From a virus (Duplodnaviria > Caudoviricetes), in the IMG/VR virus record IMGVR_UViG_3300038393_002374, positions 7,874 to 71,873 of that record: a stretch of 64,000 bases of DNA; one strand, 5' to 3'. The notes under the pieces were generated by a model, which was not told the origin of the DNA, did not search any database, and saw nothing but the letters and a program-made list of their open reading frames with translations. Below are positions 7,746-22,818 of this stretch, piece by piece. The position numbers and the translations under genes are program-made. Each line of letters opens with the position of its first letter. Position 1 is the first letter of the stretch.

Positions 7746-7996
7746 TTCGGATTGCCCAGGTAGTCGAGGTCGAGCGCCTCCAGCAGCGGGGGATAGGCGC
7801 GGACCACGTCACGGATCGTCACCGTGAACTCCTTGACGATCTCGCCGCCGCCCCAGGGCTTGCCGCCCGCGATCCGGTGATCGTTCAGATAGACGCACTC
7901 GATCCGGTGATGCCACTTCACGACGGCGAGCCGCAGGGGCGCGTCGAGGTCGTCTCGGGACATGCGAGCGGTCTTGGGTTCTTGGGTGTTGGTCAC
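7742..7996 (-). CDS. Hypothetical protein
   Basis: GTG start with AAGGGG RBS, first gene of leftward operon. Confidence 0.55.
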   Translation of the reverse strand: MTNTQEPKTARMSRDDLDAPLRLAVVKWHHRIECVYLNDHRIAGGKPWGGGEIVKEFTVTIRDVVRAYPPLLEALDLDYLGNPK

Positions 7997-8020
7997 GTTG
8001 GCCCCTTCCGATGGAGCGGG

Positions 8021-8048
8021 AGTATGGGGCCCGGTTAAAAGAAAGCAA
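8021..8048 (-). promoter_or_regulatory. Candidate leftward sigma70 promoter TTGCTT-16-CATACT
   Basis: Divergent intergenic position; resembles other early motifs (see findings). Confidence 0.4.
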
Positions 8049-8198
8049 GCGGGAAATTTTGCGGCCTGGGGTCGCGCCGCGCGGCTGTCCTATGGACAAT
8101 TGTCGAGCTTGGATTTTTAGTCGCATTTCCCGGATGTCGGGTCGGGATTTAATTCGCGGTTTTAGTGAAACCGCGAATTCCAGGAAAAGGGGCGATAA

Positions 8199-10493
8199 AT
8201 GCCAAGAGGCTCGGGCTCTGGTCGGGACGTGGCGTCCGGCGGCGCGCCAAGGCATCCCAGGTCGGTCTCCGAATATCTGGCGAGGGTCGGCGCGGAGGTG
8301 CTCAACTTCCGTCGCGCGATGATCAAGGTCCACAAGGGGGCCTACTACGTCGAGCGCGCGATCATCCGAATCCAGTCTGATGGCGTCGTTTCATGCTCCT
8401 TGAAGGAATATGAACCGACGCCAGAAGAGGCCGCAACGATGAAGCGGGACCTGGAAGGGGTGACATTCCCGCGTGCGATCCTGGCGCGCGACGCCGAGGG
8501 ACTGCGCGGGCAGGTCTCCGGCGACGTCTTTGAGTTCTGGGACGTGAAGCGCGAGGGGATCGTCATGTGCCAGGAGCGCAGGCGCATGAGGAACGGGGCG
8601 AAGCGCTACGTGCCGTGGACCATGATGGACGACGGCAAGTGGGTGATGATGGAGCCGGAGGGGGACCTGCCGTTTTGGAAGCCGTATGGTCCCGACTGGC
8701 TGCAGGCCAGTGGGGGCCATGGGAGCGCTGGCCGGAGGATCATGCTGCACGAGGGGGCCAAGGCGGCGGCGGCGGCCCAAGCCGTCGCCATGGGACTCTG
8801 GGAGCCGGACAAAGGGAGCGCTCTGCGAGCGCACCCTTGGGCGGATGAGCTGGCGGGGTATGAGCACTGGGGGATGATCGGTGGTGCGCTGGCTCCCCAT
8901 CGCACGGCCTATGAGGAGCTGATGTCGGTCTCGCCCCTGGAGGTCGTGTACGTCTGCGACAACGACTTCCCCGGCGAGGCGGCGCTGCAGATGGTGTCGA
9001 AGGCCTGGGGGCGGTCGCTGAAGGGCGTCGCGTTCGGGAAGTCGTTTCCGGGGTCCTGGGACATGGCCGATCCGCCGCCCGCCTCACTGGTGGTCGGGGG
9101 GCGCTGGATCGGGCCCCGGCTGGAGGACCTGAAGAAGCCGGCCACCTGGGCGACCGAGCTGGTCCCGCCGGCCGGGGGCGGCAAGGGTCGGCCGGCGGCG
9201 CGCATCCGGGCGGAATTCGCCGAGGAGTGGCTGCACTGCGTCACCCCGGAGGTGTTCATCCACAAGGACTGGCCCAACCGGGTGCTGTCGGCCGCGGAGT
9301 TCAACTCCCGCACGGCGCCCTTCTCCCACGTGGGCGGGACCTCCGAGCTGCTGAAGAAGGTGGAGGCGTCGAAGGCCGCGGTGCTGGCCTACACGCCGGG
9401 CCAGGAGCCGGGGGTGTACGGGGGATCGGCCCTGGGCCACTACATCAACACCTATTGCCCCTCCTCCATCGCGGCCGAAGCCGGGGACGTGGGGCCGTGG
9501 CTCGACTTCATGGAGGGTCTGATCCCCGGCGAGAAGGATCGCTACGAGGTGATGCGCTGGGTGGCCACCCTGGTGGCCCGGCCGGACATCCGGATGCTCT
9601 ACGGCCTCTTGCTGATCAGCGAGATGCAGGGGGTGGGGAAGGGCACGCTGGGCGAGCGCATCCTGACGCCCCTGGTCGGCGAGGTGAACGTCAGCTTTCC
9701 CAGTGAGCAGGAGATCGTCGACAGCAACTTCAACTACTGGCTGGCCCACAAACGGCTGGCCGTGGTCCACGAGATTTACTCCGGGCACTCGTCGAAGGCC
9801 TACAACAAGCTGAAGTCGGTGATCACCGACAAGTACATGACGGTGCAGAAGAAGTACCAGCCCAACTACGAGATCGAGAACTGGATACACATCATCGCCT
9901 GCTCCAACTCCATGCGGGCCATGAAGCTCTCCATGGACGACCGGCGGTGGCTGATCCCGCGGCTGTCGGAGAAGAAGCGCTCGGACGGCTACTGGGAGAG
10001 GCTAAACCGCTGGCTGGCCTACGAGGGGGGTCTGGGGATCATCCGCCGCTGGGCGGAGGAGTTCGTGGCCGCCGAGGGGCCCGTGCAGCGCGGCGAACCG
10101 GCGCCGTGGTCGGAGTCGAAGCGGATCATTGTCGAGGAGAGCTACTCGCCGGGGCAGGCCTTCGCCGCCGGGCTCCTGGATCGGTTGCGGGACGACGTGG
10201 CAAGCGGTCGCCTTCCAGGCGACAGCTTTGTCTTCGATGCCGACATCGTGGCCGCCATCCGGCAGGAGATTTACGGCGGCCACTACAACGACCGCCTGGA
10301 GAAGCCGATCACCATTCGGGCGCTGGCCAAGGGCTCCGGGTGGTGCGTCGGCGACGCCCAGAACATGGTCTCCAAGTGGCCGCCCAAGGCCCGCGTGCTG
10401 TCGCTGGACGCCGAGACCGCGGCGACCTCGCCGAGCGAGCTGGCGGTGAAGGGCAGGGTTCCAGTGATGGTCGAGAAGAAGGTGACGATGTGA
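8199..10493 (+). CDS. Primase-helicase (TOPRIM-like plus DUF5906/NrS-1-type SF3 helicase)
   Basis: HEGAKAA and 'CDNDFPG' TOPRIM motifs; Walker A QGVGKGT; 'VVHE', 'KLKSVIT', 'CSN', 'DDRRW'. Confidence 0.85.
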   Translation: MPRGSGSGRDVASGGAPRHPRSVSEYLARVGAEVLNFRRAMIKVHKGAYYVERAIIRIQSDGVVSCSLKEYEPTPEEAATMKRDLEGVTFPRAILARDAEGLRGQVSGDVFEFWDVKREGIVMCQERRRMRNGAKRYVPWTMMDDGKWVMMEPEGDLPFWKPYGPDWLQASGGHGSAGRRIMLHEGAKAAAAAQAVAMGLWEPDKGSALRAHPWADELAGYEHWGMIGGALAPHRTAYEELMSVSPLEVVYVCDNDFPGEAALQMVSKAWGRSLKGVAFGKSFPGSWDMADPPPASLVVGGRWIGPRLEDLKKPATWATELVPPAGGGKGRPAARIRAEFAEEWLHCVTPEVFIHKDWPNRVLSAAEFNSRTAPFSHVGGTSELLKKVEASKAAVLAYTPGQEPGVYGGSALGHYINTYCPSSIAAEAGDVGPWLDFMEGLIPGEKDRYEVMRWVATLVARPDIRMLYGLLLISEMQGVGKGTLGERILTPLVGEVNVSFPSEQEIVDSNFNYWLAHKRLAVVHEIYSGHSSKAYNKLKSVITDKYMTVQKKYQPNYEIENWIHIIACSNSMRAMKLSMDDRRWLIPRLSEKKRSDGYWERLNRWLAYEGGLGIIRRWAEEFVAAEGPVQRGEPAPWSESKRIIVEESYSPGQAFAAGLLDRLRDDVASGRLPGDSFVFDADIVAAIRQEIYGGHYNDRLEKPITIRALAKGSGWCVGDAQNMVSKWPPKARVLSLDAETAATSPSELAVKGRVPVMVEKKVTM

Positions 10494-11177
10494 TGGTGAT
10501 GCAGGGCGCGGCGTCCCGGCGCCCTGGCTCTCACTCACGTGGTGGCTGCGGCTTGGGCCGCAGCGGCGTTGCGGAGGTAACGGAGCTTGGCCGTGGGGTC
10601 AAGGGTCAGGGTGTCGCAGACTGGTCAGCCACTCGCTTCCCATCCCGGTTGGCTACGGGCCAGAGCCTTGTCCGCTGCGTCTGCGACACCCGTCCGTTCC
10701 TCCCCAGGCACGGAGACCGCCGGCCCCTGAGGGCCGGTTCACGGGGAGAGGATGGCGCGGGTGGGGTCTGGGGTCAAGATGGGGAGGGCGACCGCGGCGT
10801 ATGCGTGGTCTGCAACCCTCCCCGAAGCCGTATGCATACGGGCTTCCTTGGTGTCGCGCACCCCTGCGGTCCGAGGGCCCAGGCGGAATGGCGACGAGGG
10901 GAGAGTGAGGGGGATCGGGCCTGGGGTCAAGGATCATGTCCGACCGACCACCACTTCGTCGAAGGGATCGTGGTACAGAGCCGTCGCAACGTACTCCCCG
11001 ATCCTTCCGGCCCGCGGACTAGCGGGACTGAACTCAGCGGCGGGTGGGCAAAGGTCGTCTCTCATGGCCTCGGGATGGAGGCTCGCCCACGTTGCCCCAG
11101 CCACCACCAGCTTGTCCTTCGCTGTCTGCGCCGGGTATGCTTTCTTTCTTATTCGTTCGGGGGGGCTGGGGTCAACG

Positions 11178-11211
11178 AAAACCCCGCCAGTCCGGTGAAG
11201 GACTGGCGGGG
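11178..11211 (-). terminator. Rho-independent terminator (leftward)
   Basis: 12-bp stem CCCCGCCAGTCC/GGACTGGCGGGG followed by TTTT on minus strand. Confidence 0.6.
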
Positions 11212-11286
11212 CTCGGAAGGAGAAGGTCCGCGGGCTTGATGGGCCGGGCCCGCGGGCTTCAGCGCGGGAAGGATGGAGGAGATCGG

Positions 11287-11787
11287 ATGGAAACGCAAGG
11301 GCCCGTGTGGCGCAACGGCAGGCCGATGGCGCGGCGAACGGGGGAATTGACCCGGAAACTGGCGTCCATCGAGGTCGGGGAGACCCGGCTGGTGGTGGGC
11401 TCTAAGGACCACGTGCGCGCCCTCGTCAGGGGCGAACGCGGCTGGATGCGGGTGGAGCATCCGGAACGGCGCTTCGAGCTGGGATACCTGGACCCCTTCC
11501 GGACGCTGGTGACCCGACTGGAGGACCTGCGGCCGGAGGACTGGCCGGCGATCTGGACTCAGGCCAGGGCCGCGGAGAGCGCCGCGATGTCGATGTACCG
11601 GGATGAGCGCACGCTGGTTCCCGGATGGCATGGATTCGCCCGATGGGCGGTGTCGGAGGGTCACGGGCGGCTGATCAGGGGAGGCCGGTGGTGGGTCTGG
11701 GGGCACGCCAGAGGGCTCAAGGCGCAACGGGCGTTCATGATATGCCTGAGAAACGCGGGCGTCCCTGCAAGGCTGCAGGCGAACTAG
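11287..11787 (+). CDS. Hypothetical protein
   Basis: GGAGGAG RBS before METQG. Confidence 0.55.
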   Translation: METQGPVWRNGRPMARRTGELTRKLASIEVGETRLVVGSKDHVRALVRGERGWMRVEHPERRFELGYLDPFRTLVTRLEDLRPEDWPAIWTQARAAESAAMSMYRDERTLVPGWHGFARWAVSEGHGRLIRGGRWWVWGHARGLKAQRAFMICLRNAGVPARLQAN

Positions 11788-11856
11788 TCTTAGACTGATT
11801 GAAAACCAACCTGTGATTGTTGAATAATCTCACAAATCGATCACAAAAACCACCAG

Positions 11857-12038
11857 GGGTTTAATCCCAGAACCCACTTTCCACTTCCATAAACATCTCT
11901 TTTCTATCTTGCGTAAGGGATAATTAGAAAAAGAAATAAAGAAAAGAAGAGAAGGGGAAGAGAGAAGATAAAGTGGGGGGAGTAGTACGATTTGAGATGT
12001 TTATGGAAGTCGGAGGAGGGTTCTCGGGATTTAATCCC
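11857..12038. repeat. Long inverted repeat with perfect 17-bp core around an AT/purine-rich spacer (origin-like)
   Basis: ACTTCCATAAACATCTC 11883-11899 / reverse complement 11994-12010; outer imperfect arms. Confidence 0.75.
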
Positions 12039-12092
12039 GGATGCGACATCCGGGCGCTTGCCAAGGCGCAGCTTTGCCGTGATCTTTCGGGC

Positions 12093-12713
12093 ATGGCGTG
12101 GCGGGCGATCTATGCGGAACCGAGGCGTGAGTTCGCGGCTCTCGCCGAACTGAGGCGATTGAGGGTGGGGTGCTTCTGCCCCTACGAACTGGTCACCGAG
12201 CGCAAGCGCTGGCGGGGTGGCTGGCGGATGGTGAGTGAACCGCGACCCTACTTCCGAGGCTACCTGTTCGCCGACCTGGACCGGATGGTCTACACCGACC
12301 CCTGCAATGGCTCGCCGAGACACGTCGAGAAACTGCCGGGTGTGCTGGGAGTCGTTGGCAACGGGCGCGGGGAGCCGCTGGAGGTCCCGAAGCGCGACAT
12401 CGATCTGCTCCTGGACGTCGCCGACGAGAACGGAATGATCTCGGCCATCGACGCCACCCGGTTGAGCTATCGTTTCCGGGGCCGGGTGGGAGACGTGTTC
12501 GAGGTCATCGGGTGCGGCCTTGAGGGGGCCTGCGGCAAAATAGTCTCCCTGGATCGGCTTGACAGTAGGGGACAGGTTCGTGCAATCGTGAAGTTCTTCG
12601 GGGCGGAACGTGAGATCGACGTCCCTTATCAGAATGTGAGTAACATAAGGGCCGCAGTGGGCGGCGGATCGAATAGGGCCGGACGGTGCGACAAGCCGGT
12701 GGTTTTCCGGTAA
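12093..12713 (+). CDS. NusG/RfaH-family late antiterminator
   Basis: NGN domain 'WRAIYAEPRRE..CFCPY...PYFRGYLFA', KOW-like 'VGDVFEVIG.GLEG..G.I'; immediately upstream of late genes. Confidence 0.8.
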   Translation: MAWRAIYAEPRREFAALAELRRLRVGCFCPYELVTERKRWRGGWRMVSEPRPYFRGYLFADLDRMVYTDPCNGSPRHVEKLPGVLGVVGNGRGEPLEVPKRDIDLLLDVADENGMISAIDATRLSYRFRGRVGDVFEVIGCGLEGACGKIVSLDRLDSRGQVRAIVKFFGAEREIDVPYQNVSNIRAAVGGGSNRAGRCDKPVVFR

Positions 12714-12829
12714 TTGTCCTCCTACCCGGTAACCGAGTAGATCACACCAGCGCCGAAGCTGGTGGGCGTCGGGGCGCTACCTCGTAGAGTGCGAAGCGTT
12801 GTCTAAGGTCGTCGCAGGGAGCGAGATAC

Positions 12830-13285
12830 TTGGAGTGGTGTAAGGATTGCCCAAGGCACGAAGTTCTTGGCGGTTTGATCGATGCTCTTCGTAGAGACCT
12901 CAAGAAGCGTGATCTACGAATAGAGCATCTGAATTCGCAAATTGCTGCTATGAAGCAAGGCCGCCTCATGAATGAGGCCGTCGATTATCCAGATAAAATT
13001 TATGTAATCGGCGCGATCAATCATGATTTCGTTAAGATCGGCATCTCAGCGGATGTCGAGAAGCGTCTAAAGAGTCTCAAAAACCCTACCTCACATCCTG
13101 ACGCAGATATTCAAAACTTAAGAATTTTCTTTCAAGAAACGATTGGTTTCGAGGCGCGAAAATTTGAGCGTTTCGCTCATCGTCAACTTCGTCAATTTCG
13201 AGCTAAAGGTGAGTGGTTCCGATTAGCCCCGGAAGAATCGGTCCAGGCTATCAAAAGCCTGTTGCGAGAATGGAAGTCGGTTTGA
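12830..13285 (+). CDS. GIY-YIG nuclease (T5orf172/Mug113-like)
   Basis: 'IYVI...VKIGIS..VEKRL...E..AH......GEWF'; lower GC; start uncertain. Confidence 0.75.
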   Translation: MEWCKDCPRHEVLGGLIDALRRDLKKRDLRIEHLNSQIAAMKQGRLMNEAVDYPDKIYVIGAINHDFVKIGISADVEKRLKSLKNPTSHPDADIQNLRIFFQETIGFEARKFERFAHRQLRQFRAKGEWFRLAPEESVQAIKSLLREWKSV

Positions 13286-13509: not shown

Positions 13510-14057
13510 ACGCGCTGGTCCCTCTCCGGATCGGTACGGGGCTGCCTGGACCTGGACGGCCTTCGATTTATGATCCCGCCATCGCCGACGAGATCATCGA
13601 GCGACTGAGCAACGGCGAGTTCATGCGTCGCATCTGCCAGATCGATGGAATGCCCTCGGTCACGACCGTGAATAGTTGGGAGCTGAAGCGCCCAGAGTTT
13701 GCCGAAAGGGTCGCACGCGCCCGCGAACTCGGCGCTAGATGCTGGATCGAACAGGCGGTTGAGATCACCTTGAACCCCGAGGAGGGGCGAAAGATCGTCC
13801 ACAAGTCGGACGGTGGCGTGGAGCTGACGCGCGAGGACGCGGTGGCAGCGCGCAAGCTGGCTGCCTGGGGGTTGATGGAGGGGGCGAAGAAGATCGCGCC
13901 CAAGGTCTACGGCGACAAGGTCGCATTGACCGGCGGCTCCAAGGATGACACGCCTGCCATGGTCAAGGTGGAGCATGAGCACACCCATCGGATCGTGAAG
14001 CTTGAACGCGCCGTCGTCACCCGCATCCTTCCGACCGAGAGCGATTCCACCGCCTGA
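13506..14057 (+). CDS. terS: Terminase small subunit
   Basis: 'GRPSIYDPAIADEIIERLSNGE..R.IC..DGMPS..TV..W', 'APKVYGDK'. Confidence 0.85.
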   Translation: MNALVPLRIGTGLPGPGRPSIYDPAIADEIIERLSNGEFMRRICQIDGMPSVTTVNSWELKRPEFAERVARARELGARCWIEQAVEITLNPEEGRKIVHKSDGGVELTREDAVAARKLAAWGLMEGAKKIAPKVYGDKVALTGGSKDDTPAMVKVEHEHTHRIVKLERAVVTRILPTESDSTA

Positions 14058-16386
14058 GTGGCCCGACGTCGGTTTGGGACTCGATGGCGTATTCAGGCTC
14101 CAGACGCCTGAGGTCTTCCTGCCGCTCCTTGAGAAGGGGCCGAAGTACAAGGGAGCCAGGGGCGGCCGGGGCTCCGGCAAGAGCCACTTCTTCGGCGAGA
14201 GCCTGATCGAGGAGGCGCTGGACGATCCGTACCTGCGGGCCGTCTGCATCCGCGAAGTCCAGCGCACCCTGGCCCAGTCGTCCAAGCGCCTGATCGAGGA
14301 CAAGATCAGGAAGCTGAAGGTCGGTCACCGCTTCGACATCACCGACAAGGTGATCCACATCCTCGACGATGGCGGTGAGCGCTGCGGCGTCATCATCTTC
14401 GAGGGGATGCAGAACCACACCGCGGACTCGATCAAGTCCCTGGAGGGCTTCCGCATCTGTTGGGTGGAGGAGGCCCAATCGCTCAGCCAGCGCTCGCTGG
14501 ACCTGCTCTACCCGACGATCCGCGAGAAGGGCGGCGAAATCTGGTTCTCGTGGAACCCCAAGAAGGCCACGGACCCGGTCGAGAAGTTCATGACCGGCGA
14601 GGACGCGGCGTCCGATCCGGCCATTGTCGTGGTCGAGGCCAACTACCACGACAACCCGTGGTTCTGGGCCACCGAGCTGGTCGACGACATGGAGCGTGAC
14701 CGCAGGCGCGATCCCGACAAGTACGCGCACATCTGGCTCGGCGCCTATCTGAAGCGCTCCGAGGCCACGGTGTTCAAGAACTGGCGCATCGCGGTCTTCG
14801 AGACCCCGGACGTGGTCGAGCGCTTCTTGTTCGGCGCCGACTGGGGTTTCAGTGTGGACCCCTCGGTCCTGGTGCGGGGCTTCCTGGGGCGGTTGATCGA
14901 GCGCGGCAAGGACGCCCACGGCAACGACGTGGTCACCGCGATTCCCGACCAGCGCGGCAACACCCTCTTCATCGACGCCGAGGCCTACAAGGTCGGCTGC
15001 GAGATCGATTACCTGCCGGCCCTGTTCGCCGGCAATGCGCCGCCCAAGCACGGGCGCGAATGGGAGAACCCCTACGGCTGGCGCGGGATACCGGGCGCTC
15101 TGAGGTGGCCGATCACGGCCGACAGCGCTCGGCCCGAGACCATCAGCTACATGAAGCGCGCCGGCTTCAACATCCGGCCGGCTCTAAAGGGTCCGGGTAG
15201 CCTTGAGGACGGCATCGAGTTCCTGCGGAACTACGACATCGTCGTGCTTCCGACCTGCGTCCATGTCATCGACGAGCTGAGCCTTTACTCTTACAAGGTC
15301 GACAAGATCACCGACGAGGTCTTGCCGGAGCTGGCGGACAAGGAGAACCACTGCCTCGTGGCGGGCACGAGGGTCCGGACGCAACGAGGCGAAGTCGCCA
15401 TTGAGGATGTCATGGCCGGTGACTTGGTGGAAGGCAGCCTGGGCTATCGACGCGTACTGTTCAGCGGCGTCACGGGAACACGGCGAACCACTCTAACGAT
15501 TGAGACGACCTTGGGCTCTTTCGTCTGTACACCGGATCATGAGGTTTATACCCAGAGAGGATTCGTCCGGGCTGATTGTCTCCGATACACGGATGAGGTG
15601 TTCGGGGGTGACAGATGGTCGAGACCACGAAATTCCTGGGACGGACTTACCGGCGCTATCCGGAGAGTGATCGCCAGTCGGATCGCCTCTATTTCCGCTG
15701 CACGATCCGCGGGGAACCGCATCTCCTGCATCGGGACGTCTGGGTCCATCATCACGGGCCCATTCCAGATGGATGGGAAGTCCATCACAAGGACGAGAAC
15801 CCCGGTCGCAATGAGATCGAGAATCTGGAGTGCCTGCCTCCCGAGGAGCACAAGCGACGCCACCCTTACACTGAGGAACGGCGTGCTCGGCAGGTCGAGC
15901 ATCTGGACCGGATACGGCATCTCACCAAGGCGTGGCACGCGAGTCCTGAGGGGCATGAGGCGCATCGCCGAATTGGTGGCATGGCCTACGTCAACTTTGT
16001 TCCTGAACCCAAGCCTTGTGACCAGTGCGGGAGGACCTTCCTTCCAAAGAGAATCGGGAACAAGGACAGGTTCTGTTCGAATGCCTGCAAGTCAGCGTTT
16101 CGGCGTGACCGGGGGCTCGATGACGTCGAACGGAAGTGCGCTCAGTGCGGAACGCCGTTCGTCATCAATCGATACTGCAAGACGGCAACTTGTTCGCGGA
16201 CGTGTTCTCAGCGTTTCGCCTGGGCCAATGGCCGACGAGGTCTATGACCTGACGGTCGAAGACACGCATGACTTCTTCGCGAACGGGGTGCTGGTGTCCA
16301 ATTGCATAGACGCCCTCCGCTATGCCGTGGAGGGCCTGCGGCGCGGCGGCCTGCGGATCAGCGACGCGGTCCTGGCGAAGGTCTGA
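14002..16386 (+). CDS. terL: Terminase large subunit (PBSX type) containing an intein
   Basis: GGRGSGKS Walker A, WVEEA Walker B, 'GADWGF', C-terminal 'DKENH|CIDALRYA'; TTG start uncertain. Confidence 0.92.
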   Translation: MNAPSSPASFRPRAIPPPEWPDVGLGLDGVFRLQTPEVFLPLLEKGPKYKGARGGRGSGKSHFFGESLIEEALDDPYLRAVCIREVQRTLAQSSKRLIEDKIRKLKVGHRFDITDKVIHILDDGGERCGVIIFEGMQNHTADSIKSLEGFRICWVEEAQSLSQRSLDLLYPTIREKGGEIWFSWNPKKATDPVEKFMTGEDAASDPAIVVVEANYHDNPWFWATELVDDMERDRRRDPDKYAHIWLGAYLKRSEATVFKNWRIAVFETPDVVERFLFGADWGFSVDPSVLVRGFLGRLIERGKDAHGNDVVTAIPDQRGNTLFIDAEAYKVGCEIDYLPALFAGNAPPKHGREWENPYGWRGIPGALRWPITADSARPETISYMKRAGFNIRPALKGPGSLEDGIEFLRNYDIVVLPTCVHVIDELSLYSYKVDKITDEVLPELADKENHCLVAGTRVRTQRGEVAIEDVMAGDLVEGSLGYRRVLFSGVTGTRRTTLTIETTLGSFVCTPDHEVYTQRGFVRADCLRYTDEVFGGDRWSRPRNSWDGLTGAIRRVIASRIASISAARSAGNRISCIGTSGSIITGPFQMDGKSITRTRTPVAMRSRIWSACLPRSTSDATLTLRNGVLGRSSIWTGYGISPRRGTRVLRGMRRIAELVAWPTSTLFLNPSLVTSAGGPSFQRESGTRTGSVRMPASQRFGVTGGSMTSNGSALSAERRSSSIDTARRQLVRGRVLSVSPGPMADEVYDLTVEDTHDFFANGVLVSNCIDALRYAVEGLRRGGLRISDAVLAKV
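15352..16302 (+). mobile_element. Intein (317 aa) in the TerL nuclease motif
   Basis: Block A CLVAGTRV, block B CTPDHEV, block F VYDLTV, block G GVLVSN|C. Confidence 0.92.
15615..16247 (+). CDS. HNH homing endonuclease with C-terminal Cys4 zinc motifs, nested out of frame in the intein
   Basis: 'LHRDVW...GPIPDGWEVHHKDENPGRNEIENLECL...H'; CDQC..FCSNAC, CAQC..CSRTC; own GGGGGTG RBS and ATG. Confidence 0.85.
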   Translation: MVETTKFLGRTYRRYPESDRQSDRLYFRCTIRGEPHLLHRDVWVHHHGPIPDGWEVHHKDENPGRNEIENLECLPPEEHKRRHPYTEERRARQVEHLDRIRHLTKAWHASPEGHEAHRRIGGMAYVNFVPEPKPCDQCGRTFLPKRIGNKDRFCSNACKSAFRRDRGLDDVERKCAQCGTPFVINRYCKTATCSRTCSQRFAWANGRRGL

Positions 16387-16399
16387 GGGAGAGCCAACC

Positions 16400-16564
16400 A
16401 TGCCGAGCAAGTCTCCCGAGCAGCGGCGCCTGATGGCCGCCGCCGCGCATGATCCGAAGTTCGCGGCCAAGGTCGGCGTCCCGCAGAAGGTGGCGAGGGA
16501 GTTCAACCGCGCCGACCAGCACGAGGGCCAGGATCGGAGCTTCCAGAGGATCAAGGCCCTCTGA
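16400..16564 (+). CDS. Small head-associated protein
   Basis: 'MPSKSPEQRRLMAAAAH..G.PQKVAREF' phage motif; GAGGGAG RBS; TGATG coupling to portal. Confidence 0.65.
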   Translation: MPSKSPEQRRLMAAAAHDPKFAAKVGVPQKVAREFNRADQHEGQDRSFQRIKAL

Positions 16565-19278
16565 TGTGGCCCTTCCGGCGGGGGCCGGCGAAGCCGGCCG
16601 AATCCGCGAAGCCGGCCGAATCCGCGAAGGCCGCCGAGCCGGCGCGCCCGGCCAAGCGGCGCATCAGCGACACCGCCATCGCCCGCGTCATGGAGCGGCG
16701 GCCGGGCGGCTTCATGCTGACGCCGCTGAGCGAGACCCCGCGCGTCGAGCGTCCTTTCGAGCCCGCCAAGCCGCTGACCAAGGACGCCCCGGAGATGGCC
16801 TTCGACTCCGGCGTCGAGGACGTCTTCGCGCAGCTCAACTCGGCGACCTACAACTTCGGCGAGGGCATCGGCTTCATGGGCTACGGCTACTTGGCCGAGC
16901 TTGCCCAGCGCCCCGAGTACCGCCGCGGATGCGAGGTCCTGGCGCGGGAGATGACCCGCCGTTGGATCAAGCTGACCTACAACGGCGAGGAAGACGACGT
17001 CGAGCCAGAGGCCGAGGGCGACGAGGAGGACGCCACGCCCGGCGAGGCCGACAAGGACGCCGAGCAGCCCGAACCCGAGGTCCGGAAGCCCGATGTCGAT
17101 CCCGAGCGGGGCGACCCGCCGGGAATCGGACACAACAAGCCGCCGCGTCCGGCCCGCAGGGTCAAGCCCAGCGACGAGAAGCTGAAGCGGATCGAGGCGG
17201 AGCTGAAGCGCCTGAAGGTTCGCGAGGCGTTTCGCCGCGTGGCCGAGTTGGACGGCGTCTTCGGCCGTGGCCACATCTATCTGGACACCGGCGACACCGA
17301 GAAGTCGGAGGAGCTGCGCACGCCGCTGACGGTGTCGAAGGTCAAGATCGGCCGGCGCAAGAAGCTGAAGCGCCTCGTCGTCGTCGAGCCGACTTGGACC
17401 TATCCGCAGAACTACGACAGTCGCGATCCGCTGAAGCCGGAGTTCTTCGAGCCGCAGAACTGGCTCGTGATGCAGAAGTCGGTCCACGCGAGCCGACTGC
17501 TGACCTTCGTGGGCCGCGAGGTCCCGGACATGTTGAAGCCGGCCTACTCGTTCGGCGGCCTCAGCCTGATCCAGATGGCCAAGCCGTACGTCGACAACTG
17601 GCTGCGCACCCGCCAGTCGGTCAGCGACATCCTGCACGCCTTCACCGTCTGGGTGGTGAAGACAGACCTCAATGACATCCTGAACGGCAGCGACGACGGC
17701 GATCAGGTCGTCCGGCGGGCCGAGCTGTTCAACCGGGTCCGCGACAACCGCGGCCTGATGATGGTCGACAAGGAGAGCGAAGACTTCGCCAACGTTTCGG
17801 CGCCGCTCGCCGGGCTCGATCACCTCCAGGCCCAGGCCCAGGAGCAGATGGCCAGCGTCTTCGCCATCCCCCTGGTGGTCCTGCTCGGCATCACGCCCTC
17901 CGGCCTGAACGCCTCCAGCGACGGCGAAATCAGGGTCTTCTACGACTTCATCCACGCCTTCCAGGAACACCTGTTCGGCCACGCGCTGCACGTCATCCTG
18001 AAGATCGTGCAGCTCTCGCTGTTCGGGGAGATCGACGAGGACATCGGCTTCGAGTTCCTGCCCCTTTGGCAGCCGACCGAGACCGATCAGGCGACGATCC
18101 GCAAGACCAACGCCGACATCGACAAGGTCTACATCGACGCGGGCGTGCTCGATCCCTCCGAGGTCCGCGAGAAGATCGCCAACGACAAGGACAGCCCCTA
18201 CCAGAACATCGACCCCGACGCCGTGCCGGAGCCGCCGCAACCACCGGGCGGCAATCCCTTCGGCGCCGATCCGGATGGCGAGGGCGGCTCAGAGGACGAT
18301 CCGGACAGTGGCTTCCCGCCCTCGTCCGGCGGCGGCGAGCGCCGGCCCGCGGTCCCCAAGGCCGGCGGCAACCCCAAGCCGCCCGAGCGCCGTCCGGCCG
18401 GCGGCGATCCCAAGCCCCCGCGGGCCCAGGACGCCGCCTTCAGGGAACAGGACCATCCCCGTGGCCAGCCGGGCAACGCCGGCCAGTTCGGCCCCGGTGG
18501 TGGAAAGTCTAAGACCGAGGCTCCGAAGCCGAAGTCCAAGGAGAAGGAAGCGGCCAAGGCGGCGCAGGAGCCCGCCAGCCCCAGGGAGCGTCCGCCGTTC
18601 TCCGAGGAGGAGCTGTCCGGGCTGCCGCACGTCGATGAGATCGATCAGCCGACCACGTCCTGGGAGGAGCTGAAGACCAAGGGCGAGGAGGGCCGCGCCG
18701 CCTTCGTCGAGGCGCTCTCCGTCGTGGCTGACAAGCTGAGGCTGCGGACCGACGTGACGCTGCCCGAGCAGTTGACGCCCGAGGACCTGGAGAGCGGCGA
18801 CAACTTCCTGTTCGTGGCGCCGAACAAGTCCGAGGCCCGAGCGCGGGCCAAGATCGAGAGCGACTATGGCGGCAACTGGTCGAAGCTGCGCGACATGGTC
18901 CGCGCCTCGATCACGGTTTCGTCGATGGATGAGCTGCGGGCGGCCGTGATCGCCGCCGAGGACGCGGGCCTAGCCCTGGCGGCCAAGCCCAAGGACCGGT
19001 TCACCAAGCCGACGCCCGAGGGCTACCGCGATCTCAATACCCTGGTGCGGCTGCCCAACGGCATGGTGGCCGAGCTGCAGTTCCACCTGACGCCGATCAT
19101 CGCGGCCAAGAACGAGGGCCACGTCCACTACGAGGCGCAGCAGCGCCTGACCCGCAAGAACGGCATGGATGAGCCAGACGACACGTGGTCGCCTGAGGAT
19201 GTCGAACGGTTCACCCAGGCGCGCGAGCGGCAGCGCGAGCTGTACGGCGCGGCCTGGGAGAAGGCGACGAAGGCCTAG
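16564..19278 (+). CDS. Portal protein (DUF1073 type) fused to a C-terminal RelA/SpoT-like nucleotidyltransferase domain
   Basis: Portal motifs 'LAELAQRPEYR', 'VHASRL', 'IPLVVLLGITPSGLNASSDGE'; C-terminal 'K..R...K..DY', 'LRDMVR', 'GYRD.N', 'AELQFH', 'HVHYE'. Confidence 0.85.
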   Translation: MWPFRRGPAKPAESAKPAESAKAAEPARPAKRRISDTAIARVMERRPGGFMLTPLSETPRVERPFEPAKPLTKDAPEMAFDSGVEDVFAQLNSATYNFGEGIGFMGYGYLAELAQRPEYRRGCEVLAREMTRRWIKLTYNGEEDDVEPEAEGDEEDATPGEADKDAEQPEPEVRKPDVDPERGDPPGIGHNKPPRPARRVKPSDEKLKRIEAELKRLKVREAFRRVAELDGVFGRGHIYLDTGDTEKSEELRTPLTVSKVKIGRRKKLKRLVVVEPTWTYPQNYDSRDPLKPEFFEPQNWLVMQKSVHASRLLTFVGREVPDMLKPAYSFGGLSLIQMAKPYVDNWLRTRQSVSDILHAFTVWVVKTDLNDILNGSDDGDQVVRRAELFNRVRDNRGLMMVDKESEDFANVSAPLAGLDHLQAQAQEQMASVFAIPLVVLLGITPSGLNASSDGEIRVFYDFIHAFQEHLFGHALHVILKIVQLSLFGEIDEDIGFEFLPLWQPTETDQATIRKTNADIDKVYIDAGVLDPSEVREKIANDKDSPYQNIDPDAVPEPPQPPGGNPFGADPDGEGGSEDDPDSGFPPSSGGGERRPAVPKAGGNPKPPERRPAGGDPKPPRAQDAAFREQDHPRGQPGNAGQFGPGGGKSKTEAPKPKSKEKEAAKAAQEPASPRERPPFSEEELSGLPHVDEIDQPTTSWEELKTKGEEGRAAFVEALSVVADKLRLRTDVTLPEQLTPEDLESGDNFLFVAPNKSEARARAKIESDYGGNWSKLRDMVRASITVSSMDELRAAVIAAEDAGLALAAKPKDRFTKPTPEGYRDLNTLVRLPNGMVAELQFHLTPIIAAKNEGHVHYEAQQRLTRKNGMDEPDDTWSPEDVERFTQARERQRELYGAAWEKATKA

Positions 19279-19463
19279 TCGCCGCCCATCATCCTCTGGG
19301 CCTCGGCCTCGTCGATGATGTCGCCCCACTCGACGCCCTTGGGGACGTCGCCGGTGTAGGTCACGAACTTCTTCTCCGTGGGGGACCAGACCTCGCTGGG
19401 CCACGCGCGGGACCTCCCGCGGAACAGGGCCCCCTCGTTCTCGATGTAGATGAATTTGGCCAT
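19275..19463 (-). CDS. Small antisense protein, candidate immunity/antitoxin
   Basis: 62 aa MAKFIYIENEG...; GGAGAAG RBS; 4-nt overlap with portal stop; only clear minus-strand gene in the late operon. Confidence 0.7.
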   Translation of the reverse strand: MAKFIYIENEGALFRGRSRAWPSEVWSPTEKKFVTYTGDVPKGVEWGDIIDEAEAQRMMGGD

Positions 19464-19577
19464 TCGTCTTCTCCGGTTTGAGACCTCCCTTGTGATGTGC
19501 GTGTGAGCGCGGCGCAACGCGCATTCGCGGGCCCACGCTCCTCATATAGGCGACTTTGAAACAAAAAGGAAGTGGAA

Positions 19578-19664
19578 ATGTTCCACACCCTCTGGATCAT
19601 GGTCGCCGGCTGCATCGTCGGCCTTCAGGCCTTCGGATACCTGACCCTGTTCCGGGCGGCCTGA
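19578..19664 (+). CDS. 28-aa hydrophobic peptide
   Basis: AAGGAAG RBS; MFHTLWIMVAGCIVGLQAFGYLTLFRAA. Confidence 0.4.
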   Translation: MFHTLWIMVAGCIVGLQAFGYLTLFRAA

Positions 19665-19668
19665 CCGG

Positions 19669-20469
19669 GTGTCCATCCACCATCGCCAGCGACAGGTGAT
19701 CCTGCCGCGGGTGGTCCCGAACGCGGGACTGCAGGCCTACTACCGCAAGCGCCTCGACCGGCTGATCGAGGCCATGCACGACTCGGTCGCCTACTGGGTG
19801 GCGCAGGCCTATCGCGCCAATCCGCCGGAGATCGCCCAGGACGAGAGCCCGGCCGTGGCCATGCGGCGGCTGATGCGCAAGCTGGCCAGTCGCTGGAACC
19901 GCGAATTCGACAAGCTGGCCAGGAAGCTCTCACCCGAATTCGTGCGTCGCAACGGCCGTATGAGCGACACCCAGTTCATAGAGCACCTCAAGGCGGCCGG
20001 CTTCACCGTGGAGTTCTCCGTCAGCCGGCAGGTCAACGACGTGATGCAGGCGGCCATCGGCGAGAACGTGGCGCTGATCAAGTCGATCCCGCAGCAGTAC
20101 CTGACCCAGGTTGAGGGCATGGTCCTGCGCTCGGTGCAGGCCGGACGCGATCTCTCCACCCTGTCGAAGGACCTGCAGCACCAGTACGGCGTCACGCGCC
20201 GTCGCGCGGCCCTTATCGCCAGGGACCAGAACAACAAGGCCACCTCCGCGATCTATCGCGCTCGACAGGTCGAGCTGGGGATCGAGGAGGCCATTTGGCA
20301 CCACAGCCATGCAGGCAAGACGCCGCGTCCTGCGCACGTCGCCATGAATGGCAAGACCTACAAGGTCTCCGAGGGCATGTGGGACGAGGACGAGCAACGC
20401 TACGTCTTCCCTGGTCAGCTCATTTCCTGCCGATGCACAGCCAAGTCGATCATTCGGGGGTTCATGTGA
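19669..20469 (+). CDS. MuF/SPP1 gp7-like head morphogenesis protein
   Basis: 'RAALIARDQNNK...W.H......R..H...NG...PGQLISCRC'. Confidence 0.85.
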   Translation: MSIHHRQRQVILPRVVPNAGLQAYYRKRLDRLIEAMHDSVAYWVAQAYRANPPEIAQDESPAVAMRRLMRKLASRWNREFDKLARKLSPEFVRRNGRMSDTQFIEHLKAAGFTVEFSVSRQVNDVMQAAIGENVALIKSIPQQYLTQVEGMVLRSVQAGRDLSTLSKDLQHQYGVTRRRAALIARDQNNKATSAIYRARQVELGIEEAIWHHSHAGKTPRPAHVAMNGKTYKVSEGMWDEDEQRYVFPGQLISCRCTAKSIIRGFM

Positions 20470-20612
20470 TGGCTCACCACCGCGCCACGCGAGACGACGA
20501 CTGGACACCGCCGACCTTCGGCATGGGCGTGGTCATCGGGGTGCTCGGCGGCCTCGTCGTCGCCGCCCTGATCAGCGCCGTCGTCACGCTGCCCTGGACC
20601 TACCTTGGCTGA
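20469..20612 (+). CDS. Small single-TM protein
   Basis: TGATG coupling; [20 protein letters not shown]. Confidence 0.5.
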
Positions 20613-22818
20613 CGGCGCCGGCGTCATGCTGCAGGCGCCGGGAAACCGGTTCCTCGTCCTGCGGCGTAGTCAGGAGAGCGACCATCCGGGGACCTACTGC
20701 TTCCCCGGCGGCGGCGTGGAGGAGGGCGAGACCTACGAGGACGCCGCGCGTCGCGAGCTGCACGAGGAGACCGGCTTCGACTACCAGGGGCCACTCGCGC
20801 AGGTCGACGACCGCGATGGCTTCGTCACCTTCCGCGCCGAGCTGCCCGAGGAATTTGATCCCGAGCTGAACGACGAGCACACCGAGGCCCGCTGGATCGA
20901 GCCCGGCGAGCACGACGCGGAGCCGCTGCATCCCGGCGTCAGGGCCACCCTCAGTGAGATGGGCTTCGCCATGGATCAATCCATCCGCAAGCGCGCGCTC
21001 GCCTTCGACCGTGCCACGGTTCGCTCCTTCACCGTGGACGGCCGGCTGCAGGTCGAACTGAACCCGATCTCCAAGGCCAACGTCTGCCCCTACTATGGCG
21101 AGGAGATTCCGGACCACGAGAAGCTCGGCCTGGACCCCAAGCGGGTCTACATGCTGCTTCGCGATCCGGAGGAGCTGGCCAAGGCGGCGGAGACCTTCAA
21201 CGGCGTCCCGCTGCTGCTGATCCACAAGCCTTCCACCGCGGACGAGCACCCGCGCGAGCTGACCATCGGGACCACCGGCACGGACGCCGCCTGGGAGGAC
21301 CCGTACCTCAAGAACACCCTCGTCGTCTGGGACGCCGAAGGGATCGAGGCCATCGAATCCGACGAGCAGAAAGAGCTGTCGTCCGGCTACCGCTACCGCG
21401 CCGACATGACCCCCGGCGTGTTCAACGGCGAGAACTACGACGGGGTCATGCGGGATATCGTCGGAAACCACGTCGCCCTCGTCGAGGAGGGCCGCGCAGG
21501 GCCCGACGTCGTCGTTGGCGATTCTGCCTTGGGTCGAGACGCAGCCTTCGAGGAGAGCAAGCATCCGCGCGCTGAGAATGGCCAGTTCGGTTCGGGTGGT
21601 GGCGGATCGCCATCCAAGAAGAACGCAGGACACTACCTCCAAAGCTACTTCAATCATGAACGGCCTGAAGGTCAGAGTGCCGCCTCCGTCCATGTGGTTT
21701 TGGATAAGGATGGTGAGGTCGTCGACTGGAGCACGGGCCGTGTGAACAGGCTCGGAAATTCAGGAAAATACCGTCCCGAGGACGGACATCGGATCGTCAA
21801 GCTGTCGGCCCAGCAGGTCGCTAGCGCGAAGGGCGATGTCGGGAAGGCTCTCGAAAAAGCCAAAACCGTTGCCACCGCAAATGACGCGCAACTTGAGGAA
21901 CGAATTATGAAGATCAAGACTGCCGCGCTGCCGTCTCGGAAGGCCCTGCTTGTCCAGGGCGCCGTGGCGGCGGTCCTCGCGCCGATGATCGCCCAGGACG
22001 CCAAGCCCATCGACCTGGGCGGGGTGTTCAAGGGCGTCAACCGGAAGAACTACGCCGCTCAGCGAGACAACATCGTCTCGCGCCTGAAGCTGGCCACCGA
22101 CAAGCGTCTGGCCAAGGACGCCGACCTGGAGGACGTGGTCGCCGTGATCGACGCCCTGAAGGGCGTCAACGGCGGCGACGCCGGCGAGGACGACGTCACC
22201 ATCGACGCCGATCTCGTGCCCGGCGCCGCCGACCCGGCCGATCCGGAGAAGACCAATCCGGGCGTCTCCGGCGAGGACGAGGAGGAGGGCGGCCACGAGG
22301 CCTTCATGGCCAAGCTGAAGGCCAAGCTGGACGACGCCACCTACGCCAAGGTGGTCTCGGCCATGTCCCCGTCCGCCGCCCCCGCGCAGGGCGCGACCGA
22401 CGAGGAGAAAGACAAGAACGAGGAGCCCGGCGCCGAGGACGAGGAGGGACCCGAGAAGAAGCCCGAATTCGTCTCCAAGGGCGCGATGGACAAGGCCATC
22501 AACGCGGCCTCCGCCAAGGCGGTCAAGGACACCATCACGCGCCTCGCCGCCGTCCGCGAGGCGGAGAACATCTGTCGCCCGCACATCGGCGAGCTGGCCA
22601 TCGCCATGGACTCCGCGGAGGCCGTCTACAAGCACACGCTGCAGACGGTCTGCCCCGACCGCGACCTCACCGGCATCCACCCCAGCGCCTTCCGGGCCAT
22701 GGTGGAGATGCTCCCCACGGGCTCCGAGCCCAAGACCCCGCGGCTCGCCCAGGACGCCAAGAAGGCCAAGGCCTTCGAAGAGCGCTACCCCGGCGCCGAC
22801 CGCATCAAGAGCCTCTAA
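20605..22818 (+). CDS. Nudix hydrolase-DUF2213 prohead protease-scaffold fusion
   Basis: Nudix box [23 protein letters not shown]; DUF2213 '[11 protein letters not shown]', 'ELSSGY', '[12 protein letters not shown]'; acidic scaffold tail. Confidence 0.85.

Follow-up and report, generated by a model that had tools for sequence, protein, structure and literature searches.

A phage portal protein with a C-terminal Tas1/Apk-like RelA-SpoT domain and an inverted candidate immunity gene

The stretch of DNA analyzed here, referred to below as the window, comprises 64,000 nucleotides (nt), positions 7,874 to 71,873, of the IMG/VR record IMGVR_UViG_3300038393_002374, an uncultured soil phage of the Caudoviricetes. 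Its subject of interest is a gene of 904 amino acids (aa) in which a portal and an effector domain form one polypeptide, sited within the head-gene module of a terminase-portal phage, together with a 62-aa gene on the opposite strand. The explanation that best accounts for our results, and that we consider probable, is that this portal carries a C-terminal RelA-SpoT (RSH) cargo of the Tas1/Apk kind, joined to it through a short element that we call the HPR tag, and that the small gene encodes the cognate plug-type inhibitor of the cargo. The features on which this explanation draws are the following.

16564..19278, + strand: portal-RSH fusion gene, 904 aa; the sole portal in the 71.9-kb record
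17170..18126, + strand: portal core, aa 203-521; Phage_portal_3 (PF06381), E 4.9e-88
18424..18504, + strand: HPR tag AQDAAFREQDHPRGQPGNAGQFGPGGG at the portal/cargo junction, followed by a Lys/Pro/Ala-rich linker to ~18600
18601..19275, + strand: Tas1/Apk-like RSH pyrophosphokinase domain, aa 680-904, 225 aa
19275..19463, - strand: 62-aa cognate partner, candidate plug-type immunity; ATG start, 4-nt tail-to-tail overlap with the portal gene
19464..19490, - strand: 5' leader of the 62-aa gene, with ribosome-binding candidates GGAG (19474-19471) and AGGGAGG (19490-19484)

The portal-RSH fusion and its partner gene

A preliminary description of the sequence had proposed a RelA/SpoT-like domain at the C-terminus of the portal, and both sequence and fold comparisons uphold that assignment. 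A phmmer search of the PDB with aa 613-904 returned Tas1 as its sole match (6ox6_A, E 4e-5), and a profile built from 37 sequences again placed Tas1 first (E 1.8e-17), followed by SaSAS, RelA, RelSeq and YwaC at 2e-4 to 1e-2. The AlphaFold2 model of the domain reached a predicted local distance difference test (pLDDT) score of 96.1 when computed from an alignment (51.5 for the single-sequence fold), and its best Foldseek match was once more the Tas1-Tis1 entry (6ox6_A, E 2.4e-8), with RelQ, RelP and Rel enzymes next and CapRel at ranks 48-49 (9erv_A E 1.7e-4, 7ztb_B E 1.9e-4). Among the 500 Foldseek matches counted, 57 lay at E<=1e-3, and all those listed through rank 50 were RSH enzymes, in line with an RSH synthetase fold of the Pol-beta-like nucleotidyltransferase (NTase) type. 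The best matches in BFVD were domains within 1000-aa proteins of uncultured phages, named DdrB-like, RelA/SpoT or ART-PolyVal-like.

The motifs singled out in the preliminary description are in place, with K755..R759...K763 from nt 18826, LRDMVR at aa 775-780 and GYRDLN from nt 19021, followed by AELQFH and HVHYE. Aligned to Tas1 by profile, the corresponding residues belong to what we take to be motifs Syn1 (K755/K763), Syn2 (D777/R780), Syn3 (Y821-R822-D823), Syn4 (E837/Q839) and Syn5 (H853/Y856). An exhaustive phmmer search with aa 670-904 yielded 1927 cluster representatives at E<=1e-3; in the 82 best of these, of which 39 match Pfam RelA_SpoT at E<=1e-3, and in 19 portal fusions, residues K755, K763, D777, R780, Y821, D823, E837, Q839 and Y856 are invariant, while H853 is present and invariant, or nearly so, in the RSH alignments. 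Because the Syn residues are conserved throughout these two sets, the domain looks catalytically intact.

The carrier of this domain is the portal itself. The 904-aa protein matches the portal family phrog_146 (E 2.4e-111), its closest solved counterparts are E217 gp19 and the Pam3 portal (9b41_L E 1.4e-32, 8fvh_O E 2.4e-31, 8hds_A E 4.6e-12), and the ORF (open reading frame) at 16564-19278 is the single portal gene of the record. Pfam detects only Phage_portal_3 on the N-terminal side of the RSH domain, with no PAAR there and no MuF domain anywhere on the protein; MuF is the next gene on the + strand, and it is short and without extension. The earlier proposal that the cargo rides on the portal and not on MuF is thus sustained; Phage_portal_3 occurs on 10 of the 82 RSH representatives and Phage_Mu_F on none. 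Other domains co-fused in the same set are InPase (4), Acb1 (2), ART-PolyVal (1) and NUDIX (1).

Comparison with independent data confirms the fusion as genuine and recurring. In the protein database, at least 17 proteins combine a portal with an RSH domain, the latter at 43-69% identity, and IMG/VR contains one intact copy at 97-99% identity (L002) and a more distant one at 37-44% (L003/L097). The fused stretch also recurs in soil and rhizosphere metagenome runs from several studies, and a single contig of an independent run (X4) covers all of 16500-19700; indels in it are limited to an in-frame deletion of 18 nt (16588) and a single nt within a TT pair (19463), the latter lying outside the reading frames and leaving the ATG of the 62-aa gene intact. 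Both the RSH domain and the small ORF are beyond chance, with 1927 and 402 clusters, respectively, at E<=1e-3. In a quick tree, all 11 portal-fused RSH domains fall within one clade of 21 rows (Shimodaira-Hasegawa-like approximate likelihood ratio test support, 95). A search of genome contigs with the RSH domain alone gave 63 pattern matches and 0 relatives; a second one gave only portal-region matches among the best 80 loci, and it is uninformative on absence from bacterial genomes because RSH-only matches may rank below these. In another run (X3), one contig joins 18551 to 19272 and so omits exactly the RSH domain (720 nt); with a shorter side of 35 nt and the sequence between not known, this joint, which may come from a strain that lacks the cargo or has exchanged it, is too weak to claim a cargo-less variant.

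The preliminary description had also put forward the gene on the opposite strand as the cognate partner of the domain, with a stop overlap and a ribosome-binding site of its own. These elements are borne out: the stops of the two genes share the palindrome CTAG (19275-19278), and a GGAG lies 7 nt ahead of the ATG of the small gene. The partnership, for its part, is supported by linkage across carriers and orientations. In 24 viral loci examined by tblastn, a homologue of the 62-aa protein comes immediately after the RSH domain in 16; of the remaining eight, one (L085) is cut off by the end of its contig 25 nt past the domain, and the RSH identity of the other seven is only 29-40%. A homologue likewise sits beside the domain in six of 11 loci from metagenomes; some of these are duplicates of viral loci. 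In both portal-fusion lineages the small gene is inverted, with the 4-nt tail overlap. It is co-directional in 14 loci of phages of ~90 kb related to Bordetella phage vB_BbrM_PHB04, where a separate RSH protein of 470-610 aa follows the portal gene and the start of the small gene overlaps the RSH stop, or lies within ~10 nt of it, in most cases. In one of the fusion lineages (L097) the partner gene is the last member of a 2.8-kb minus-strand cassette between the portal-RSH gene and MuF; seven small ORFs with repeated 5' regions make up this inserted block (7878-10583 of that locus, - strand).

Thirteen aligned members of the 62-aa family share 13 invariant columns and the motif IENEGALFRG...W...Y...K..WG. 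The family comprises 402 clusters at E<=1e-3, none of which contains a Pfam domain and the named members of which are called hypothetical, and the window ORF has no family match in Pfam, PHROGs or NCBIfam. Judged by this conservation, the 62-aa ORF is a real gene. A complex model of the RSH domain and the 62-aa protein, computed with both alignments, obtained a score of 0.90, whereas the best of the three controls reached 0.01. The 0.90 mark is reached by 58 of 80 solved complexes and by 2 of 110 mismatched pairs, reference counts that are only approximate because analysis-specific alignments were used here. At least 89% of contacts are common to the complex runs, and the pLDDT of the partner is at least 89. 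The predicted interface on the enzyme includes D777, K810, Y821, D823, E837, K849 and Y856, that is, the catalytic and acceptor cleft, and the model therefore supports binding of the 62-aa protein over the RSH active site. On the side of the small protein, the predicted contacts involve E8-L13, R17-W21 and G43-E45, which face D777, Y821, D823, E837 and Y856 of the enzyme. Such a predicted cover agrees with the mode reported for Tis1 and IapK (PMC12226406).

A pyrimidine-rich 'early promoter' for the 62-aa gene was considered and rejected: the 29-mer is unique in the window, and a two-part pattern matches two other sites and does not match here. The 11-mer ACTTYCTTTYT does occur 5 times in the window (0.02 expected), the other four copies being at 52195, 53621, 54681 and 59905. 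Near the 62-aa gene it is ambiguous, because it is also the reverse of the + strand Shine-Dalgarno and ATG of a 28-codon ORF. This hydrophobic ORF (19580-19666, +), with the strong Shine-Dalgarno AAGGAAG, lies between the 62-aa gene and MuF.

The HPR tag and the cargo of homologous portals

The junction between portal and cargo is marked by the HPR tag, an element of about 25 aa with the pattern [AQ]-D-[AD]-x-[WF]-x-E-x-[DK]-HPR-x(3-6)-G-x-F-G-x-GGG, in which D623, A624, E628, H631, R633, G640 and F642 are invariant across the 19 portal-RSH fusions. No Pfam family covers the tag, and no description of it was found in the passages of Iyer et al. 2017 (PMC5512222) covered here. Across the fetched loci it is present in 46 true distinct copies, always at module borders, on extended portals, on protease-scaffold proteins and on other large head-module proteins (including those of L029, L047, L076, L116, L025 and L063). 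A single portal may carry up to four copies (L029, 1978 aa), and a near-terminal tag also heads free-standing RSH genes (P0042, P0047, P0049, P0124 and P0125). In locus L025 the portal is plain (552 aa) and an RSH domain forms part of another ORF, of 1115 aa (~9800-13200), which is located between the genes for MuF and the protease and has HPR tags at aa 47 and 328.

The preliminary description had suggested a comparison of the C-termini of homologous portals, and these proved variable. Most of the homologues measure 450-590 aa and have no C-terminal extension; extended ones, of 1100-1980 aa, are found in L029, L037, L047, L057, L076, L081 and L116, and their HPR tags are followed by Zeta_toxin, ADPrib_exo_Tox/ART, topoisomerase IB (Topoisom_I) or PRTase-like cargo. 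The portal family is thus a polymorphic carrier, in which a constant portal is combined with alternative C-terminal modules. To our knowledge, MuF (Apk2) is the only carrier on which (p)ppApp synthetases of phages have been described; portals of this family emerge as a second such polymorphic carrier, whose cargo comprises kinase, ART and topoisomerase modules.

A second copy of the tag in the window (21538-21606) belongs to the protease of the same head module, in which Sf6-like TerS, TerL, portal-RSH, MuF, protease-scaffold (Nudix-DUF2213) and cement protein follow one another. Two further features are needed at this point.

19669..20469, + strand: short MuF protein, 266 aa, without C-terminal cargo; Phage_Mu_F at aa 147-258, E 5.8e-15
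20605..22818, + strand: Nudix and DUF2213 head-maturation protease (NUDIX aa 4-111, DUF2213 aa 140-307), with the second HPR tag (21538-21606) and a scaffold-like tail

The protease ORF matches the head maturation protease family phrog_2229 (E 4e-128), and its tag lies directly after the DUF2213 domain and before the scaffold-like tail. This protease is the likely processing enzyme for tagged cargo, and a tag common to protease and cargo represents a concrete candidate release step. The Nudix domain (window 20605-20976) was considered as a hydrolase-type immunity and rejected: it is fused to, or directly upstream of, the DUF2213 protease in 26 of 118 related loci irrespective of RSH, and the portal-RSH lineage L097 has no Nudix.

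Proposed mechanism and rival explanations

In the mechanism that we propose, the cargo would sit on the C-terminus of the portal, in the capsid interior. Fusion to the sole, stoichiometric portal makes incorporation into the capsid almost unavoidable and fixes the copy number, and we know of no study that has so far shown whether such toxins enter virions, or by what route. The protease would probably free the cargo at the HPR tag within the prohead, because the same tag precedes other cargo and follows the protease domain; the cargo would then leave with the DNA, reach the next host with it and briefly cripple that host or its defences. The enzyme would most probably use ATP to pyrophosphorylate adenine nucleotides at their 3'-OH, and the ensuing (p)ppApp synthesis would be toxic through ATP/ADP depletion and alarmone effects. 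The 62-aa inhibitor would silence the enzyme in the cell that builds the virions, or shut it off after entry, so that the partner would guard the producing cell and/or end the toxic burst. Given the inverted orientation of the partner gene, late transcripts of the head operon would cross it in antisense, and we speculate that this lowers the partner while the cargo is packaged.

A broader version of this scheme, which we put forward as a tentative and rather doubtful extension, takes portal, HPR tag and protease as a general cargo-loading device, in which up to 12 copies would be loaded, cut at the tag by the protease that bears the same tag, and injected, with the inverted immunity gene acting as a timer. 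The partner would be transcribed alone, early or constitutively, and would quench the incoming toxin after a short shut-down of the host; late read-through of the head operon would be antisense to it, and the cargo would be packaged without its plug.

Several points weigh against the explanation that we prefer. The identity of the RSH domain to Tas1 is only ~21%, and the window copy lies below the Pfam RelA_SpoT (PF04607) cut-off (15 versus 27 bits), which homologues L083 (30.6 bits) and L094 (27.3 bits) pass. RSH enzymes at a similar distance make (p)ppGpp, make both alarmones or pyrophosphorylate tRNA, so that the analogy with Tas1 tips the balance only slightly towards (p)ppApp as the product, with (p)ppGpp or tRNA targets as the alternatives. 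No PDB chain, the Tis1 of 6ox6 included, matches the 62-aa protein at E<=10, and Tis1_ImmP (PF24154) matches none of the 13 family members at E<=10 and nothing in the record. The term immunity consequently rests on linkage and on the complex model; a neighbouring Atlas cluster (score 0.84), 11% of whose members carry Tis1_ImmP, is a lead only. The promoter-like sequence that the preliminary description had also attributed to the antisense gene was not reproduced, a sigma-70 consensus scan of 18900-20000 returning 0 sites; in L097, however, the one other independent portal fusion available as DNA, the partner gene ends a minus-strand cassette. The portal label requires 8 changes inside the 21-row clade of the quick tree, which may reflect either repeated gain and loss of fusions or the presence of many rows that are gene fragments. 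The record lacks an Aph1-type HD hydrolase, and the release of the portal-tethered domain and its passage through the tail are steps that we infer.

The framing in terms of temperate phages that accompanied the preliminary description also weighs on this side of the argument, as it does not carry over to the record: neither an integrase nor a resolvase was found in it. Hence, a role in lysogen competition, or in the contest between a prophage and its competitors, is doubtful here, and the phage may be virulent rather than lysogenic.

Three other explanations accept the fusion and differ in what the enzyme does or where it acts. The enzyme could be a pyrophosphokinase of the tRNA 3'-CCA end, like those of toxic small alarmone synthetase (toxSAS) modules (CapRel, FaRel2, PhRel2), with the same fold, fusion and partner, and would then halt translation. 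A small neutralising gene next to the toxin gene is a typical trait of toxSAS modules, tRNA pyrophosphorylation is also reversible by HD hydrolases, and two CapRel structures (9erv_A, 7ztb_B) figure among the Foldseek matches. Nonetheless, the profile separates Tas1 from every other RSH enzyme, the latter at 2e-4 or weaker, and Tas1 is first by fold with CapRel far down the ranking, so that we regard this reading as improbable. We assign a comparably low probability to the notion that the domain makes (p)ppGpp, or both alarmones, and reprograms the host at entry as a take-over effector, with the small protein as its regulator. Such a role was proposed by Iyer et al. 2017 for RelA/SpoT domains in phage polyvalent proteins (PMC5512222), the second PDB match is the exported small alarmone synthetase 8vx3, a maker of both alarmones (PMC12691689), and relatives combine the RSH domain with Acb1 (2/82), ART-PolyVal (1/82) and InPase (4/82), domains of host-modifying or anti-defence types. 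Tas1, which is the closest relative, is however adenine-specific (PMC10083569), and an active-site plug combined with the HD hydrolase of sister phages corresponds to the toxic Apk pattern (PMC12226406).

The third explanation, which we deem unlikely, if somewhat less so than the two just discussed, holds that the RSH domain stays on the portal and acts in the producing cell or in the capsid, for instance in late host shut-off, without ever being injected, and that the antisense gene tunes it. The fusion being the sole portal, 12 copies would be anchored in the capsid; cleavage and ejection are steps of our own proposal; and the free Apk2 domain is more toxic than full-length Apk2 (PMC10083569). 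Conversely, the copies of the HPR tag coincide exactly with module borders, one of them following the protease domain, the tag stands near-terminally before free-standing RSH genes, and portals with up to four tagged modules, such as that of L029, would be hard to accommodate under a portal unless processed. The remaining possibility, that the 62-aa ORF arose by chance in GC-rich DNA and that the RSH domain has no partner, would draw on the GC content of 65%, on the many spurious ORFs that overlap real genes and on the lack of family matches in the three databases; it is refuted by the 402 clusters, by the 13 columns invariant in 13 members and by the adjacency to RSH, kept on either strand, and the contrast in complex score (0.90 versus 0.01) also speaks against it, so that we attach practically no weight to it.

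Relation to known systems

Among known systems, the Apk2-IapK-Aph1 module of MuF toxins comes closest. The two Apk types described are Apk1, a PAAR-Tas1 protein with Tis1, and Apk2, a MuF-RSH protein with IapK/BcTis1 and Aph1 (PMC10083569, PMC12226406); RelA-like toxins are also known among MuF toxins (PMC5576092). As in the Apk2-IapK(BcTis1)-Aph1 systems of Bacteroides caccae, S. pneumoniae, M. haemolytica as well as P. multocida prophages, a Tas1-like RSH domain forms the C-terminus of a head-module protein, an adjacent small protein sits at the active site (a predicted position in our case), and an HD hydrolase comes next in the sister phages of PHB04 type (PMC10083569, PMC12226406). In contrast, the carrier here is a portal (PF06381), with a short MuF encoded by a gene of its own; the partner gene lies in inverted orientation, in tail-to-tail overlap, and has no detectable similarity to Tis1/IapK; and the record has neither HD hydrolase nor integrase, aph1 being variably present in Apk2 systems. 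What is new is therefore the portal carrier, the unannotated partner family, the inverted partner gene and the absence of the HD hydrolase, whereas the kind of cargo was already known. The small partner defines an unannotated candidate immunity family of at least 402 clusters.

Tas1/Apk1-Tis1, the effector of a Pseudomonas aeruginosa type VI secretion system (T6SS; 6ox6), provides the best match in sequence and fold and likewise confers immunity by binding of the active site; it differs in its PAAR N-terminus, in delivery by the T6SS, in the ~21% identity and in partners unrelated in sequence. The toxSAS modules (FaRel, PhRel, CapRel) also pair an RSH-fold toxin with an adjacent neutraliser, and some are phage-encoded, but they are chromosomal or prophage toxin-antitoxin or defence loci without a virion carrier and rank far lower by fold. 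As regards the carrier, Iyer et al. 2017 described phage polyvalent proteins that carry RelA/SpoT and portals fused to InPase, PBECR and 2H (PMC5512222). Their effector-portal fusions, such as the InPase-portal BcepF1.124, resemble ours in joining an enzyme to a portal in the head module, with packaging and injection presumed, and relatives of our fusion even place InPase between portal and RSH (P0018, P0023). They differ in that RelA/SpoT is reported, in the passages covered, on MuF and polyvalent proteins and not on portals, and neither an HPR tag nor a partner gene is mentioned there. The carriers enumerated in a survey of exported alarmone synthetases are XopAD, MuF, DUF4157 and Rhs/PAAR, with portals not among them in the part covered (PMC12691689). 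In a 2026 preprint, the T7 portal is reported to bind RelA and SpoT and to inhibit both, which is a different link between portals and alarmones. No portal-RSH fusion was found in the abstracts and article passages that the literature searches covered.

The nearest cultured counterpart is found in the PHB04 gene series gp35-gp34-gp33-gp32, where homologues of the RSH domain (50.7% identity) and of the small protein are encoded beside the portal gene. It differs from the window in that the RSH protein is separate (493 aa, with an unrelated SH3-like N-terminus) and in that the small gene is co-directional, translationally coupled and then followed by an HD hydrolase. Among 50,697 cultured phage records, only PHB04 has the RSH domain at E<=1e-5, unfused and annotated as hypothetical. 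The system is amenable to bench tests, because the partner family is also present in this cultivable phage. Of the 14 PHB04-type loci, 10 have a gene for an HD_4 hydrolase behind the small gene, which parallels the apk2-iapK-aph1 order (PMC12226406, PMC10083569). A MuF identity for the N-terminus of the PHB04-type RSH protein was rejected in a comparison restricted to the MuF type of the window, for which hhalign gave a probability of 0.3%.

In PHB04 gp35-gp27 (L083/L106) and in L084-L099, the portal is followed by RSH, small partner, HD_4 hydrolase and a Metallophos phosphatase, and further on by InPase proteins and a giant protein combining N6-methylase and SNF2. Several genes of these loci open with a common N-terminal peptide, MIILF.K.QLALFD.PV.V..HVRKDG, which may be a packaging signal.

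The IMG/VR record from which the window was taken measures 71,873 bp, with a CheckV completeness of 100%, and also encodes a primase, a helicase, a thymidylate synthase and an antiterminator. Its nearest portals in genomes, among the best 80 loci, belong to Rhizobiales, Acetobacteraceae and Burkholderiales. Upstream of the fusion gene, TerL (14002-16386) carries an intein (Hint_2 and Intein_splicing, aa ~451-767), the middle of which is overlain in a different reading frame by an HNH_3 endonuclease ORF of 210 aa (15615-16247); the intein frame stays open under this ORF but reads as low-complexity sequence.

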